Below are positions 27,957 through 33,443 of a stretch of 64,000 bases of DNA, one piece after another. Source of the DNA: a virus. Position 1 is the first letter of the stretch. Each line of letters begins with the position of its first letter. A model generated the notes under the pieces. That model made no database searches and had not been told where the DNA came from. It saw only the letters and a program-made list of their open reading frames with translations. Where the stretch lies: IMG/VR virus record IMGVR_UViG_3300027763_000038, positions 1-64,000 of that record; one strand, written 5' to 3'. Position numbers and translations under genes: made by a program.

Positions 27957-28990
27957 TTACATATCTTAGAAGTAGTTCTTATGGTACACATTCTATGTGT
28001 CCACAACAATATTTTTTTGAGTATATTCTTGGTTTAAGATCTCCATCTAATAAAAAAGCAGATAAAGGAACTATTTGTCATAAGGCTTTAGAAATATTAG
28101 CATTTATTAAACTTAATACCCAAAACAATAATCCAATTTTTGAGGATGATGTTGTGGGGAAAGTAGATATAAATAATTATAGCATTAAAAAAATAACTGA
28201 TCAAGTATATGAATATTATACTTCTCAGTTCACCCATCATGTTTGGGAACCAAAAGATCATAAGGATTGTCATGCATGGATTAATAAAGCTTTAGATTAT
28301 AATAAGGGAATGTTTGATCCTAGGAATAGACATATCGTTCAGCCAGAACAACGCTTTGATCTTGAGATTAAGAAACCTTGGTCATCTTACCGATATGAAA
28401 CTAAAGATGGAATCCTTGAAGGAAACCTTGCTATAAAAGGAACTATTGATCTTATCACTAAAGTCAACGATAATACTCTAGAAGTTATTGATTGGAAAAC
28501 AGGACGAAGATTAGATTGGGCTACTGGAGAAGAAAAGACCTTAGAGAAATTACAAAATGATCCTCAATTAAGAATATATCATTATGCAATTCAACATATG
28601 TATCCAGATATCGAACACGTAATGATATCCATTAATTTTATCAACGACGGAGGAGCATTCACTATTTGTTTTGATAAAACTGATTTATACAAAACAGAAA
28701 TAATGTTAAAACAAAAATTTGAGACTATTAAGAACACTCAAAAGCCACAACTAAATAAAAGTTGGAAATGCAGTAAGTTATGTCATTTTGGTAAAACTAC
28801 ATTTGCTAATAGTTCAATAGAGCCGTTAACAGAATATAGAGATGGTCAACTAACAGCTAAAGATCAATGTATGACAAAGTGTGAACAAGTTAAACATGAC
28901 ATAGACACGACCGGAATGAAAGCTGTCATTGACAAGTATCAGGCTCCCGGCTATAGTATAGGTCATTACAAGGCACCTGGCACCGTATAA
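27950..28990 (+). CDS. PD-(D/E)XK Cas4/RecB-like exonuclease (probable Fe-S), ATT start
   Basis: RSSS..T..MCP..Y, G.ICH..LE, GTIDL, IDWKTG, QL.IY, C..LCH...C; SD AAGGA 8 nt before in-frame ATT 27950. Confidence 0.85.
   Translation: MIITYLRSSSYGTHSMCPQQYFFEYILGLRSPSNKKADKGTICHKALEILAFIKLNTQNNNPIFEDDVVGKVDINNYSIKKITDQVYEYYTSQFTHHVWEPKDHKDCHAWINKALDYNKGMFDPRNRHIVQPEQRFDLEIKKPWSSYRYETKDGILEGNLAIKGTIDLITKVNDNTLEVIDWKTGRRLDWATGEEKTLEKLQNDPQLRIYHYAIQHMYPDIEHVMISINFINDGGAFTICFDKTDLYKTEIMLKQKFETIKNTQKPQLNKSWKCSKLCHFGKTTFANSSIEPLTEYRDGQLTAKDQCMTKCEQVKHDIDTTGMKAVIDKYQAPGYSIGHYKAPGTV
28929..28957 (+). promoter_or_regulatory. Sigma70-type promoter TTGACA-N17-TATAGT upstream of dnaE
   Basis: Perfect -35, 17-nt spacer, 5/6 -10. 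Confidence 0.65.
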
Positions 28991-29026
28991 CATTTTTAGT
29001 TATCACAAATAAACAAGGAGACAATT

Positions 29027-29072
29027 AGATATGGACATGACTAGAGGATATGTGCCTCTGCATGTCCATTCT
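29027..29072 (+). promoter_or_regulatory. Long mRNA stem-loop covering the dnaE start and first 14 codons
   Basis: ATGGACATG (29031-39) is the exact reverse complement of CATGTCCAT (29061-69); inner AGAGG/CCTCT; outer AGA/TCT. Confidence 0.7.
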
Positions 29073-29075
29073 TAG
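29031..29075 (+). CDS. dnaE: DnaE N-terminal mini-ORF MDMTRGYVPLHVHS* (first strand and HxH ligands of the PHP domain)
   Basis: SD AAGGAG at 29015-20; YVPLHVHS is the canonical DnaE N-terminal motif; ends at TAG 29073-75. Confidence 0.8.
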   Translation: MDMTRGYVPLHVHS

Positions 29076-29082
29076 GTGGGCT

Positions 29083-30924
29083 ATGTACTCACTTTTGGAT
29101 GGACTATCGCAACCGAGAACTATTGCTGAAAGATGTCAGGAAATAGGTGCAACTTCTTGTGCATTAACTGATCATGGTAATATTGCTGGATCAGTTAAAT
29201 TTTATACAGAAATGAAAAAGAAGGGGATTAAACCTATTCTAGGGTGTGAGATTTATGTTTGTGATCAAGACCCCAAGATTAAAACCAAAGAAAATAAAGA
29301 TCTGACCCACTTTGTTATTCTAGCTAAGAATTATGAGGGGTGGAAAAGCCTTATTAGAATTGTTTCTGAGTCTAACCAGCCAGATCATTTTTATCATAAG
29401 CCAAGACTCAATATAGACACTCTTGCACAATATTGTAACAATAATGTTATCGGGTTTTGTGGTCATGCCGGATCCTATTTAGCAGATAAAATTAGTGCTG
29501 ATAATCAGCTACTTGGTGACTGGAGAAATATAGGTATTGACCAAATTGGTAAACTTAAAGACGTTTTTGGTAAAGACAATTTCTTCTTAGAAGCACAATT
29601 GATGGATTCGGTCAATTCTCCTATTCAAACAGTTTTGACTGGTGCTATGAGAGATTTGGCCAAAATTACCAATACGAAAATCATCTCCACGCCAGACGCT
29701 CACTATTGCCGTAAGGAGGACGCTGTAGATCAAAGGGTGCTTCTCTGTAATAATTTAAAAACGACCTTCCCAGAGATCAGCAGGAAGATCAGTAATGATG
29801 AGGAGGTGCCTCTTGGGTGCTTTTTTACATCTGATAACTTCCATATCTTGTCTCCAGAAGAAATGGGCCATTTTCATACAGAAGAGGAAATGGAAAATAC
29901 TAAGTTAGTAGATGCATTATGTGAAAACTATAATATCTTAGATAAGCCACATTTACCTCCGTTTCCTTGTCCAGATGGGACCAATCCAGATGAATATTTG
30001 AGGCAGTTATGTCGTAATGGTTGGAGAGATAAAATTGCTAATAATATAGATAAAGATCTTCAAAATGATTATGTTAATAGAATTAAGTACGAATTAGAGG
30101 TTCTACAAGGAGCGGATCTTTCTAGCTACTTTTTAATTGTACAAGACATTGTGAATTATGTCAGAACAAATAACTGGCTTCCGGGACCGGGAAGAGGAAG
30201 TGCTGCTGGTTGTCTGGTTTCTTACTTGATTGGTATTACTAGTATTGATCCTATTAAATATGGTTTATTGTTTGATAGATTTTATAATGCTGGACGAAAT
30301 AGTAAAGACCATATCTCTATGCCTGATATCGACGTAGACGTACCTATCAATAAGAGAGAAAACGTAATTGAATATATTAAGCAGTGTTATGGGGCCGATA
30401 AGGTTTCTCAAATGATTACATTTAATACCATTAAGGGTCGTGGAGCTATTAAGGACGTATTAAGAGTATATGGTAATATATCTTTTGATGAAATGAATAA
30501 GATTACTAAAAGTATTCCAGACGAAGCTAAAATTGCAGACGATCTTCAAGAAATGAAAGAAGAAACCGGTGAAGCATCTATTATTCGTTGGGCTTTAGAA
30601 AATGAGCCAGATAAACTGAAAGAATGGTGCTATATAGATGAAAAAAATGAATTGCAGGGACCACTTGCCAAAAGGTTTGAACAGGCTATTAGATTAGAAG
30701 GCACCAAGTCCAATCAGTCTAAACATGCGGCTGGTATTGCAATTAGTGCTCAACCATTAAATACTCTATGTCCTATGGTGTACGATTCAAAAAATGATCA
30801 ACTCATAGCTGGCATGGAAATGCAAGATTTAGAAGCGTTAGGTATTATCAAATTTGATATTCTTGGCGTGGCAATGTTGGATAAAATTATGACTATTCAA
30901 GACATCTTATCAAAAGGAGACTAA
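29083..30924 (+). CDS. dnaE: DNA polymerase III alpha, PHP + palm part
   Basis: YSLLDG, TDHG, GCE, KPR, DAHY, YFLIV.D, GRGSAAG, PDIDVD, HAAG, KFDILG. Confidence 0.93.
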   Translation: MYSLLDGLSQPRTIAERCQEIGATSCALTDHGNIAGSVKFYTEMKKKGIKPILGCEIYVCDQDPKIKTKENKDLTHFVILAKNYEGWKSLIRIVSESNQPDHFYHKPRLNIDTLAQYCNNNVIGFCGHAGSYLADKISADNQLLGDWRNIGIDQIGKLKDVFGKDNFFLEAQLMDSVNSPIQTVLTGAMRDLAKITNTKIISTPDAHYCRKEDAVDQRVLLCNNLKTTFPEISRKISNDEEVPLGCFFTSDNFHILSPEEMGHFHTEEEMENTKLVDALCENYNILDKPHLPPFPCPDGTNPDEYLRQLCRNGWRDKIANNIDKDLQNDYVNRIKYELEVLQGADLSSYFLIVQDIVNYVRTNNWLPGPGRGSAAGCLVSYLIGITSIDPIKYGLLFDRFYNAGRNSKDHISMPDIDVDVPINKRENVIEYIKQCYGADKVSQMITFNTIKGRGAIKDVLRVYGNISFDEMNKITKSIPDEAKIADDLQEMKEETGEASIIRWALENEPDKLKEWCYIDEKNELQGPLAKRFEQAIRLEGTKSNQSKHAAGIAISAQPLNTLCPMVYDSKNDQLIAGMEMQDLEALGIIKFDILGVAMLDKIMTIQDILSKGD

Positions 30925-30926
30925 TT

Positions 30927-31121
30927 ATGGCAACACAAAAACTTAAGTTTATGGATGTTCCGGTTGATACTATATTCATATTTGAGAATAATAAGTACAA
31001 GAAGATTCCAGAAGAAAGAATTAGTTGCTGCACAGTTATGAACGCTGTTAGCGCCGCTAATGCTGAACAAAAAGTTAATATTTTACCACTAATAGAAGTA
31101 GAGGTTGAGACCGCCGAATGA
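30927..31121 (+). CDS. Small hypothetical protein between DnaE parts
   Basis: SD AAGGAG; ATGA coupling to the exonuclease gene. Confidence 0.7.
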   Translation: MATQKLKFMDVPVDTIFIFENNKYKKIPEERISCCTVMNAVSAANAEQKVNILPLIEVEVETAE

Positions 31122-31819
31122 TCAACTATAACAAAATTTGTGTTTTTGATTTTGAAACAGATGGCTCAGATCCTAAGTCCTGTAGTCCTGTGCAAATTGC
31201 GGCTGTAATTATTGATCCATTAAAATTAGAGATTGTTCCAAACTCAGAGTTTAATATCTTTTTTAAGCCAGAAGTTTTAGCAAATGACGAGGATTATCAA
31301 TATACTACAGACATCTTAGATTTTCATGCTAAAGTAAGAGGCTCTTCAAAAGAAACTATCTTAGCAGAGTGGAAGAAATATCCCTCGCAAGATCAATCTT
31401 GGAAGTTATTTACAAATTATCTAACTATGCACCACAGTAGGTCTAGCAAGAAGAGTCAATTTAGTGCTCCTATTGCTGCTGGCTACAATATTAATCGATT
31501 TGACCTACCAATTATTGATAGGCTTAGTCGTAAATATGGTAATATTAATAAAGAGGATAGAAGTGATATTTTTTATCCAAGAGACGTATTAGATATTATG
31601 AATCTAGTTTTTTATTGGTTTGAAAATAATGGAGATCTAAAAAATCTATCTTTGGATACTCTTAGAGATTATCTTGGTATCAATAAAGATGGTGCTCATG
31701 ATGCCCTTAAGGACGTTAAAGACTGCGCAGAGATTCTAGTTCGTTTTATGAGATTACATCGTAACCTAGGAAATAAGATTAAGTTTAAAGACTCATTTCA
31801 ATCACCATCTCATGCCTAA
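31118..31819 (+). CDS. DEDDh 3'-5' exonuclease (DnaQ/epsilon-like)
   Basis: ExoI DFETDG, ExoII YN..RFD, ExoIII HDALKD. Confidence 0.9.
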   Translation: MINYNKICVFDFETDGSDPKSCSPVQIAAVIIDPLKLEIVPNSEFNIFFKPEVLANDEDYQYTTDILDFHAKVRGSSKETILAEWKKYPSQDQSWKLFTNYLTMHHSRSSKKSQFSAPIAAGYNINRFDLPIIDRLSRKYGNINKEDRSDIFYPRDVLDIMNLVFYWFENNGDLKNLSLDTLRDYLGINKDGAHDALKDVKDCAEILVRFMRLHRNLGNKIKFKDSFQSPSHA

Positions 31820-33443
31820 AAAATTTCAATACAGTTGCGGGTGTTCTTTTGATATTCTGTCTGAACATGATGACAAAGACAGGATGACTCTAAAATTTAA
31901 TCCAAAAATAGAAGAGATTAGTTTGGAGTGTCAAAAGACTTGGGATCTAATTTCAGACGGAAATACTAAAGGGTGTTTTCAATTGGAATCTAGACTTGGT
32001 AAATCTATGGCCAAAAAATTAAAGCCAGAGAATATAGAACAGCTTTCTGCATTGATTAGTATTATGAGACCAGGATGCTTGGAAGCTTTTAGAGACGGTA
32101 AATCAGTTTCCAATCATTTTATAGATAAGAAGAATGGTCAGGAGTCTGTAGATTATTATCATCCCTCTTTAGAGCCTATTTTAAAGGGAACTTATGGGGA
32201 AATGATTTATCAAGAACAAGCTATGGAAATCGCTAAGATTGTAGCTGGCTTTGATCTTCAAGAAGCAGATATGTTAAGAAAAGCCATTGGTAAAAAGAAA
32301 CCAGAAGAAATGGCTAAGATTAAAATTAAGTTCTTAGAAGGTACAGAAAAAGTAGGAACAGTAGCTACTTCTCAAGCAGAAGAAATTTTCGGCTGGATTG
32401 AAAAGTCTCAGAGATATTCTTTTAATAAATCCCATGCTGTTAGTTATGCCATTAATAGTTATTTGTCAGCTTATACTAAGGCTCATTTTCCCAAAATATT
32501 TTTTGCTGCATACTTGAGATTTGCAAAAGATAAAATTGATCCTAAGGCAGAAATTAAAGAATTGGTACAAAATGCTAACGAAATGGATGTTCCTGTTTGC
32601 ATACCAGATATTAGAAACTTAAATCAACTATTCATTCTTAAGAATAATAAGATCTATTTTGGACTAACAGATATTAAAGGTTTTGGACAGTCTGTATTCG
32701 ATAAATTAGTAAAACTTAAGGAAGATAAGAAGTTAGATTTTGATACTATGAATTGGGTAGAAATACTTATGAAAGTTTTAATAAATATTAACTCTACATC
32801 GGCTAAGGCTTTGATTCAAAGTGGAGCTATGTCTTATTTAGGTAAACAGAGAACAGGAATGTTATTTGAATTTGGATTAGTGTCTGAACTTACAAAAAAA
32901 GAATCAGATTTCATTCTAGCTAATCTACATCAATATAAGTCTATCGGAGATGCTTTATATGATTTATATCACAATGGAAAGTCTAACAAGAACAGAAAAA
33001 CAATCATACTTGATTTAATTAACAGCTATAATAAACCCCCATATTCTTTAGAAGATAATCCAGACTGGATCTCTGATGCAGAAGATGCTTTCTTGGGGTG
33101 TAGCATCACCTGTTCTAAAGTCGATATGTATGATATTACAATGACTAATACAACTTGTAAAGATTTTAAGAATACCACACTAAAAGATAATATAATTCTG
33201 TGTGGAGAGATAGAGAATGTTGGTGTTACTAAAACTAAATCTGGTAAGACTCCGGGACAAGAAATGGCATTTGTTACTATGAGTGATGGAACAGGAGTAA
33301 TAGACTCTGTTGTGTTCTTCCCAGAAGCATATAAAGCTTATCGAAACATTTTGTTTGATGGTAATGTGATCATTATTAAAGGAAACAGAGCCAAGTCTGG
33401 TGATTCGTTAATAGTTGAAAAGACGTATATTCCTAAGACTTGA
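31812..33443 (+). CDS. dnaE: DNA polymerase III alpha, C-terminal part (fingers, HhH, OB)
   Basis: G.FQLES, RPG, YQEQ.M, LRKAIGKKK, YSFNKSHA..Y, GL..IKG.G, MAFVT..D..G...V.F. Confidence 0.93.
   Translation: MPKKFQYSCGCSFDILSEHDDKDRMTLKFNPKIEEISLECQKTWDLISDGNTKGCFQLESRLGKSMAKKLKPENIEQLSALISIMRPGCLEAFRDGKSVSNHFIDKKNGQESVDYYHPSLEPILKGTYGEMIYQEQAMEIAKIVAGFDLQEADMLRKAIGKKKPEEMAKIKIKFLEGTEKVGTVATSQAEEIFGWIEKSQRYSFNKSHAVSYAINSYLSAYTKAHFPKIFFAAYLRFAKDKIDPKAEIKELVQNANEMDVPVCIPDIRNLNQLFILKNNKIYFGLTDIKGFGQSVFDKLVKLKEDKKLDFDTMNWVEILMKVLININSTSAKALIQSGAMSYLGKQRTGMLFEFGLVSELTKKESDFILANLHQYKSIGDALYDLYHNGKSNKNRKTIILDLINSYNKPPYSLEDNPDWISDAEDAFLGCSITCSKVDMYDITMTNTTCKDFKNTTLKDNIILCGEIENVGVTKTKSGKTPGQEMAFVTMSDGTGVIDSVVFFPEAYKAYRNILFDGNVIIIKGNRAKSGDSLIVEKTYIPKT

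Follow-up and report, generated by a model that had tools for sequence, protein, structure and literature searches.

To our knowledge, efficient programmed translational bypassing is represented by essentially one natural system, bacteriophage T4 gene 60 and its homologues, together with a few candidates. Short hops over a stop between matched codons were reportedly obtained at low efficiency in Escherichia coli test constructs by Weiss, Dunn, Atkins and Gesteland in 1987. In the MobA/gene 60 element an HNH endonuclease open reading frame (ORF) shares bases, in a different frame, with a newly added N-terminal extension, after which come a short stretch of homology to the host sequence that was replaced and then the bypass; insertion at this one site is recurrent, and as the endonuclease decays the bypass stays and protects against self-cleavage (Manning and Atkins, bioRxiv 10.1101/2022.08.31.505936). 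The terminase of Streptomyces phage phiHau3 has two 10-nt coding gaps after the rare codon UUA, and mass spectrometry of a UAA variant in E. coli revealed the junction peptide (PMC10732093). Here we analyse a 10-nt interruption in the 5' end of dnaE in a stretch of DNA from an uncultured phage, the first 64 kb (64,000 nt, called the window throughout) of the 108,770-b IMG/VR record IMGVR_UViG_3300027763_000038 (G000; completeness estimate 73%). A full-text literature search returned no description of bypassing in dnaE or in a replicative polymerase. On comparative sequence evidence we consider it highly probable that ribosomes cross the interruption by a programmed 10-nt translational bypass, that this resides on a homing-endonuclease cassette now decayed, and that the whole is a short counterpart of T4 gene 60/MobA of independent origin.

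The likeness to T4 gene 60/MobA is extensive. In both, a stop stands directly after the take-off codon, the landing codon is matched, and a conserved motif is recovered once the gap is taken out; in both, one stem-loop lies 5' of the take-off codon and beside it, and another, at take-off, takes in the stop; and both show overlap of an endonuclease with an N-terminal extension, insertions at one site, a patchy distribution, and loss of the endonuclease with the putative or established bypass kept. The differences are equally plain. The T4 element lies in topoisomerase II, which is split by the insertion, whereas dnaE here is not split by it; the gap is 50 nt in T4 (20 nt in the Aeromonas clade) compared with 6-12 nt here; take-off is from Gly GGA there and would be from Ser UCY here; landing is beyond the take-off hairpin there and would be in the hairpin loop here; and the chain made here is only 14 residues, in which a long nascent-peptide signal cannot exist in that form. 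Homology between the two elements was considered and rejected, as the gene is different, the take-off codon and gap are unrelated, and a tblastn comparison of the endonuclease described below with the T4 mobA remnant and 39-60 region detected no similarity (best E 0.6).

The remaining systems are less close. With phiHau3 the locus shares a short frame-breaking block in a conserved motif of an essential phage gene, flanking secondary structure, and the ground for proposing a bypass, namely that frameshifting would add residues to an invariant junction; it differs in that the A-site codon is always a stop, that dozens of variants exist, that the site lies 14 codons from the start, and in its link to an endonuclease. 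The 1987 E. coli hops likewise have peptidyl-tRNA re-pairing a few nt downstream over a stop, and one relative of the window, the L063 variant (TCT-TAA-TCT), has exactly that form, although those sites were artificial while the present ones are natural and conserved, with two co-varying hairpins, in an apparently essential gene. The prfB (RF2) +1 frameshift also has an A-site stop and a purine-rich element near the shift site, but here the gaps fall in all frames, a slippery site for re-pairing is lacking, and the partners of the purine-rich element are codons downstream of it.

Results and discussion

Anatomy of the dnaE start

In the window a Shine-Dalgarno (SD) sequence, AAGGAG (29015-29020), lies upstream of ATG 29031, which opens a plus-strand leader of 14 codons (MDMTRGYVPLHVHS, 29031-29072) ending in the putative take-off codon TCT (Ser14, 29070-29072). 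TAG (29073-29075) follows directly. The remainder of the DnaE N-half, with its PHP and palm domains (Pfam PHP 3.5e-31, DNA_pol3_alpha 7.5e-73), is in the +1 frame on the same strand, in a long ORF (29050-30924) that reads ...RWA-MYSLLDG..., its Met being ATG 29083; we take this ATG as the resume codon, from which the resumed frame runs to its stop (29083-30924). The Pfam PHP match of the long ORF begins only at profile position 8, and the first strand with HxH is absent from it. When the gap (TAGGTGGGCT, 10 nt, 29073-29082) is skipped, residues 10-73 align to PHP positions 2-65 with no indel and a score of 79.2 bits, compared with 70.9 bits, 8 bits below the joined product, for a +1-frameshift product in which RWA is inserted. 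Behind the stop the gap comprises the 5' arm of a hairpin, SL2 (29074-29080), and a last triplet, GCT (29080-29082), where landing is proposed.

An earlier interpretation made from the letters of the window alone (hereafter the sequence-only reading) had reported the SD, leader, TAG and +1-frame continuation, the restoration of the PHP motif by a 10-nt deletion, and the match of GCT to TCT in two of three positions. All of these sequence statements are correct. The motif alignment is indel-free as that reading implied, and the middle C of the landing triplet proves to be invariant in the relatives.

Recurrence of the interruption in related phages

A protein-based scan of IMG/VR yielded 80 loci with DnaE N-halves 64-98% identical. 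Most are continuous, with the form M..Y.PLH.HS-x-[YF]SLLDG, and in a subset different sequences interrupt the gene at one and the same point. Two further scans by DNA pattern (the second locus set was collected with a pattern fixing GTCCAYTCY and TCNYTNYTGGAYGG) gave in all 76 gapped contigs besides the window. If a variant is defined as a distinct triple of take-off codon, gap and resume codon, the 76 contigs and the window contain 35. Because the interruption recurs independently, with different sequences, in 76 contigs, an assembly artefact is untenable; the comparison shows that the interruption is far beyond chance, and is neither an assembly error nor a private lesion. What recurs when the dnaE 5' ends are compared, as the sequence-only reading had proposed to do, is a stop, a short gap and compensatory changes in hairpins.

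The 35 variants are uniform in some respects and diverse in others. The gap is 6 nt long in one variant, 8 in three, 9 in six, 10 in eleven, 11 in thirteen and 12 in one, which covers all three frame relations. The take-off codon is TCT or TCC in 35/35, and directly after it stands TAA (19), TAG (15) or TGA (1); a relaxed scan turned up no cassette in which a sense codon takes this position, and one candidate it returned (L159) was rejected as a chance match in an unrelated gene. The last gap triplet is TCT, TCA or TCC in 26 variants, ACT in 5 and GCT or GCC in 4, hence always NCN, and measured against a Ser codon the mismatch is never at both outer positions. The resume codon is CAY or ATG, which specify the residues that continuous relatives have there, and deletion of the gap restores HVHS-x-[YF]SLLDG in every variant. 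Two close forms differ by a single T in the landing triplet, L040 having GGGTCT-ATG with an 11-nt gap and L025 GGGCT-ATG with a 10-nt gap. By sequence this is a natural deletion that changes the frame relation, yet is tolerated.

These gap lengths bear directly on conventional recoding with extra residues at the junction, which would mean a +1 frameshift at TCT_TAG in the window (adding RWA), -1 or +2 frameshifting for the 8- and 11-nt gaps, and readthrough for those of 6, 9 and 12 nt. An A-site stop with nearby structure is a classic combination of +1 frameshift stimulators, and the +1 product of the window still matches Pfam PHP at the 70.9 bits given above. However, three different mechanisms would be needed at one homologous site in close relatives, UCU_U is without good +1 re-pairing, and readthrough would have to serve TAA, TAG and TGA, with most gaps out of frame. 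Nor does the gap show codon-like conservation; it pairs instead with downstream codons and conserves its NCN end, and the inserted residues would land in a motif whose spacing is fixed in 33 of 33 continuous relatives. We regard recoding of this kind as very unlikely, in agreement with the sequence-only reading, which had placed a simple +1 frameshift behind a hop; the lower score of the RWA product and the differing frame relation between relatives both speak for that ranking. A single hop mechanism would explain all the variants, because release from UCY and re-pairing with NCN suits every frame.

Translation of the leader

Leader codons 1-6 are an added N-terminal extension, and codons 7-14 (YVPLHVHS) correspond by homology to the usual start of DnaE (PHP motif I, HxH). 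In a set of 47 distinct leaders these last eight codons specify Y-x-P-L-H-V-H-S, with seven residues invariant, and the single variable one (V, I, T, A or S) varies in continuous relatives also. The Leu codon is CTG, CTT, CTA, TTG or TTA, and Pro, His, Ser and Tyr are each encoded by two codons. Since the YxPLHVHS residues are kept through these synonymous changes, the comparison indicates that the leader is translated. Residues 1-6 vary, within constraints set by the leader hairpin (SL1, below).

This conservation weighs heavily on the view that the leader is a regulatory upstream ORF or a decaying scar, such that leader and hairpins tune initiation, DnaE is begun at some start further downstream and lacks the HxH strand, and its PHP activity is dispensable given a separate exonuclease gene. 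SL1 does sequester the start codon, and a DEDDh-type exonuclease gene is present between the DnaE halves. Against this, synonymous change has kept YxPLHVHS in the 47 leaders, YSLLDG is conserved right after the gap although most variants have no start codon before it, and the next Met is about 43 codons downstream. We judge such an account very improbable. Wherever a locus is long enough to judge, the downstream ORF is unbroken over at least 560 codons, and the whole record of the window has one dnaE copy and no family A or B polymerase (PolA, PolB) that we could find.

A leader hairpin, SL1

The leader RNA folds into a hairpin, SL1 (29031-29069), recognised both by RNAalifold and by per-sequence folding, which ends directly before the take-off codon. 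Its outer stem pairs AUGGACAUG (29031-29039, the start codon and the next two) with CAUGUCCAU (29061-29069, the His-Val-His codons), and its inner stem pairs AGAGG (29043-29047) with CCUCU (29055-29059). In the window the minimum free energy (MFE) is -19.1 kcal/mol (z -4.8), and the long hairpin that the sequence-only reading had noticed 5' of the take-off codon is real. The mean MFE of the gapped leaders is -17.8 kcal/mol (z -5.1), compared with -1.0 (z +0.25) for the 33 continuous relatives.

RNAalifold finds eight pairs in the outer stem that are unbroken in 47/47 sequences despite base changes: pair 37-63 is G-C in 29, A-U in 15 and G-U in 3, and pair 31-69 is once G-C, in a leader with a GUG start. 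The G-U pairs place SL1 on the sense RNA. Scored as a nine-pair helix, the outer stem has 98.6% of cells paired, against 29-51% for the whole structure with the partner slid. The inner stem is 60% paired in fixed register, which shifts between lineages, and is kept in per-sequence folding.

A take-off hairpin, SL2, and the AGGTG element

A second hairpin, SL2 (29070-29099), begins with the take-off codon itself. In the window UCU (29070-29072) pairs with GGA (29097-29099) and AGGUGGG (29074-29080) with CUCACUU (29088-29094), leaving a loop, CUAUGUA (29081-29087), in which the landing triplet ends and the resume codon lies; across variants the loop is 6-8 nt. The general plan, present in 42/44 distinct variants, is that take-off UCY pairs with G-GA (the third nt of the second Leu codon and the first two of Asp), the stop has its first base bulged out (in one class it is paired), and the remaining gap bases pair with the Tyr-Ser-Leu codons. 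SL1 and SL2 both appear in the MFE and the centroid folds of window 29010-29105, and the two co-vary and accompany gapped forms only. The 12-nt gap, the longest (TAAGTGAGATCA; L160, 2150-2226), would land on TCA and resume at CAT, and its SL2 is the most stable of all (-11.0 kcal/mol).

The 3' arm of SL2 is coding, and it is at its synonymous sites that compensatory changes occur. The third nt of Ser is in pairs U-A (30), A-U (4), C-G (3), U-G (2) and G-U (1), that of Tyr in G-C (17) and A-U (10), and that of Leu in A-U (31), U-A (9) and G-C (1); examples of the resulting arms are AAGUGAGU/ACUCACUU, AGAGAAU/AUUCUCU, AGCGAAU/AUUCGCU and UAACGA/UCGUUA. The GGA at 29097-29099 (Leu-Asp codons), kept in 42/44 variants, has the sequence of the tRNA-Ser(GGA) anticodon and may act as a cis competitor for the take-off codon.

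The sequence-only reading had noted AGGTG in the gap as complementary to the anti-SD of 16S rRNA. The element is indeed there. As an SD mimic it was downgraded, however, as it co-varies with downstream codons; variants with AGAGAAT, AGCGAAT or TAACGA have lost anti-SD complementarity and keep the SL2 pairing through synonymous changes downstream. The comparison favours reading AGGTG as the 5' arm of SL2.

These observations also bear on a two-polypeptide arrangement, which the sequence-only reading had offered as its alternative: translation would stop at TAG and start anew, by re-initiation or independently, at AUG 29083 through AGGUGG, the free 14-mer contributing the first strand and HxH ligands in trans or being dispensable. 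The resume ATG of the window clade lies in the SL2 loop with AGGTGG 3 nt before it, 14 of the 35 variants have some in-frame ATG or GTG, and proteins split by endonucleases can reassemble, as in the MobA-split topoisomerase. The arrangement could apply only to that minority of variants with an ATG resume codon or an in-frame GTG. It fails as the general mechanism because in 21/35 variants, which resume at CAY, the stretch from the stop to the Tyr/Phe codon is devoid of any in-frame ATG, GTG or TTG. Moreover, the ATG where present is the Met of many continuous relatives (HCHS-M-YSLLDG), the purine-rich run of the gap co-varies with downstream codons and not with the anti-SD, and stable trans-complementation by a 14-residue peptide would be unusual. 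For the locus as a whole we think two polypeptides unlikely to a considerable degree.

That the gap is one arm of a conserved hairpin could also be taken to mean that it is removed from the RNA or DNA (as a micro-intron, by SL2 processing, or through population heterogeneity), the translated template then being continuous. The gap is nevertheless present in 76 independent assemblies, and there are no homopolymer runs for transcriptional slippage. We know of no bacterial or phage mechanism that excises and religates 6-12 nt, and hold removal of the gap to be extremely unlikely. The programmed 10-nt bypass that the sequence-only reading had favoured is strengthened by the relatives, with their 6-12-nt gaps in all frames, three stops, TCY take-off codons, NCN landing triplets and co-varying hairpins.

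A mobile cassette with a homing endonuclease

In a maximum-likelihood tree of 76 distinct DnaE N-halves the 39 gapped and 37 continuous sequences are interleaved. Its well-supported branches force at least 12 changes of state, and monophyly of the gapped forms is rejected (delta lnL, the difference in log-likelihood, 920; p-AU 1e-57). When gapped forms are compared with their continuous sisters, identity is 70-85% in each flank, and what sets the two apart is limited to about 70 nt before the Tyr codon. On the right, synonymous sites gradually cease to track the gapped state over some 2-7 codons past the resume codon, a boundary that is noisy and partly biased by the search pattern.

Two relatives, L025 and L040, have an extra ORF of 238-253 residues that separates the leader from the upstream PD-(D/E)XK nuclease gene. 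Its stop codon shares bases with leader codons 3-4 (AUGGACAUGA), and its last codons contain the leader SD. The L040 and L025 proteins are 87% identical and match PHROG endonucleases of the HNH and EndoVII families (E 6e-20 to 3e-13); against Pfam there are only weak helix-turn-helix matches, and there is no NCBIfam match and no relative of solved structure by sequence. In 9 gapped contigs a full-length endonuclease ORF adjoins the leader or runs into it, and C-terminal remnants are present in 8 more, while in none of about 50 continuous loci is such an ORF found at that position. The 108.8-kb record of the window has no homologue. What it does have is ..AACAAGGAGACAATTAGAT|ATGGACATGA, which resembles ..AATAAGGAGAAAATTAG|ATGGACATGA, the end of the intact HNH ORF in L025 and L040. 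Because of this likeness to the last codons of the L025 ORF, we read 29005-29030 (plus strand), which includes the leader SD, as a relic, some 25 nt long, from the 3' end of a lost endonuclease gene.

Adjacency, patchy distribution and a decay series are thus all found among the relatives, and point to a free-standing homing-endonuclease cassette. This link, like the patchy distribution and the second hairpin, goes beyond the sequence-only reading.

A second, related endonuclease ORF (191 aa, ...SLDRIDSSKGYVVDNVQWVHKTIN...) occurs in a 98%-identical relative without the gap (L020, 585-2197), where it sits between the dNMP-kinase and PD-(D/E)XK nuclease genes; the nuclease ORF overlaps its stop and has 346 codons, compared with 331 in the window. 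Weakly similar copies stand at the same position in L008/L009, L050/L051, L138, L143 and L148.

Proposed mechanism of the bypass

In the window the stop after the take-off codon, the landing codon with its two-of-three match, the frame-free gap and the flanking mRNA structures together form the picture expected of a bypass site. We infer the following sequence of events. Ribosomes would start at ATG 29031 and make MDMTRGYVPLHVHS, bringing peptidyl-tRNA-Ser on TCT (29070-29072) into the P site with TAG in the A site. Instead of termination, the tRNA would release TCT, the mRNA would slide by 10 nt, and the anticodon would re-pair with GCU (29080-29082; UCN in most relatives). Decoding would resume at AUG 29083 to give a single DnaE N-half, ...PLHVHS-M-YSLLDG..., for which the expected tryptic junction peptide is GYVPLHVHSMYSLLDGLSQPR. 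A tRNA or tmRNA that might mediate the hop was sought with aragorn in the 108.8-kb record, and none was found.

SL1 and SL2 are the likely signals. SL1, refolding behind the ribosome, could pull the mRNA forward by about the gap length; a slide of g nt would put its 3' end g+1 nt behind the P site, such that for the commonest gaps, 10-11 nt, the whole SL1 3' arm would be just outside the ribosome on landing. A role for pairing of the mRNA leaving the ribosome has been proposed previously (bioRxiv 10.1101/2022.08.31.505936; Wills et al., bioRxiv 10.1101/2024.12.09.627546), which SL1 fits. SL2 would be the counterpart of the T4 gene 60 take-off stem-loop, hindering release-factor action and codon-anticodon pairing. 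The SD, leader, gap and first few codons after it would form the right-hand end of an endonuclease cassette that moves among related phages, of which the window would have lost the endonuclease gene and kept the relic. On the analogy of MobA and gene 60, the gap probably interrupts the target of the nuclease in the conserved dnaE 5' end, and may in this way protect it.

Several points weigh against a bypass. The hop is deduced from comparison, and the search pattern biases the positions it fixes, although the 18 gapped loci that came from the protein search show the same features nonetheless. The landing triplet of the window, GCU, matches only two of three bases, and the AUG resume codon of its clade, coming after AGGUGG, would permit independent initiation. 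The nascent peptide is 14 residues, and T4 gene 60 bypassing needs a longer nascent-peptide signal. Finally, for a hairpin such as SL2, whose loop holds the landing codon, a mode of action inside the ribosome is hard to picture.

A bolder proposal, which we advance tentatively and think rather more likely to be wrong than right when taken as a whole, is that these loci are a minimal portable bypass module of about 100 nt, in which two adjacent hairpins suffice for hops of 6-12 nt without a long nascent-peptide signal. Refolding of SL1 at the mRNA exit would set the slide length, fitting the modal gaps of 10-11 nt, the GGA of SL2 would compete with peptidyl-tRNA for the take-off codon, and the module would have arisen independently of T4 gene 60 as self-protection for a different homing endonuclease.

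Neighbouring genes and possible host

Upstream of the cassette lies the PD-(D/E)XK nuclease gene (27995-28990, plus strand; Pfam PDDEXK_1, 1.6e-18), a conserved left neighbour that tblastn detects ahead of dnaE at almost every locus; in relatives with a continuous dnaE the nuclease stop and the dnaE start share bases (ATGA). DnaE of the window is encoded as two halves (29050-33443), with no signs of an intein seen. The N-half, which ends at 30924, is followed by a 64-aa ORF without a Pfam family (30927-31121), an RNase_T/DEDDh-type exonuclease gene (31118-31819) and the C-half with finger, HhH and OB domains (31812-33443). The record has a G+C content of 33.6%, and SD-like motifs precede 19/66 long ORFs, compared with 4.6% of random windows.

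A blastn search of the region against 50,697 phage records gave no match, and the best cultured phage DnaE is about 33% identical, so that neither search yielded a relative that is annotated or amenable to experiment. The sole relative in 185,579 prokaryote genomes (L157, 1900-2080) has a continuous dnaE, on a 9.4-kb contig binned in a Flavobacteriales metagenome-assembled genome; the contig is probably phage, and gives a weak hint at the host.

Implications

Gene callers truncate these dnaE genes and thereby lose the PHP HxH ligands, and pipelines for uncultured phages should recognise the pattern. An independent bypass system would separate general from T4-specific features of bypassing, the candidates for the former being the stop after take-off, the matched codons and the flanking hairpins, and for the latter the 50-nt gap and the long nascent-peptide signal. 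The dozens of natural variants amount to a ready-made mutagenesis series. Were the portable-module proposal also true, endonuclease-borne bypassing would be recurrent and not a one-off. If the bypass is as we propose, homing endonucleases have more than once interrupted their own target within an invariant protein motif without damage to the protein.

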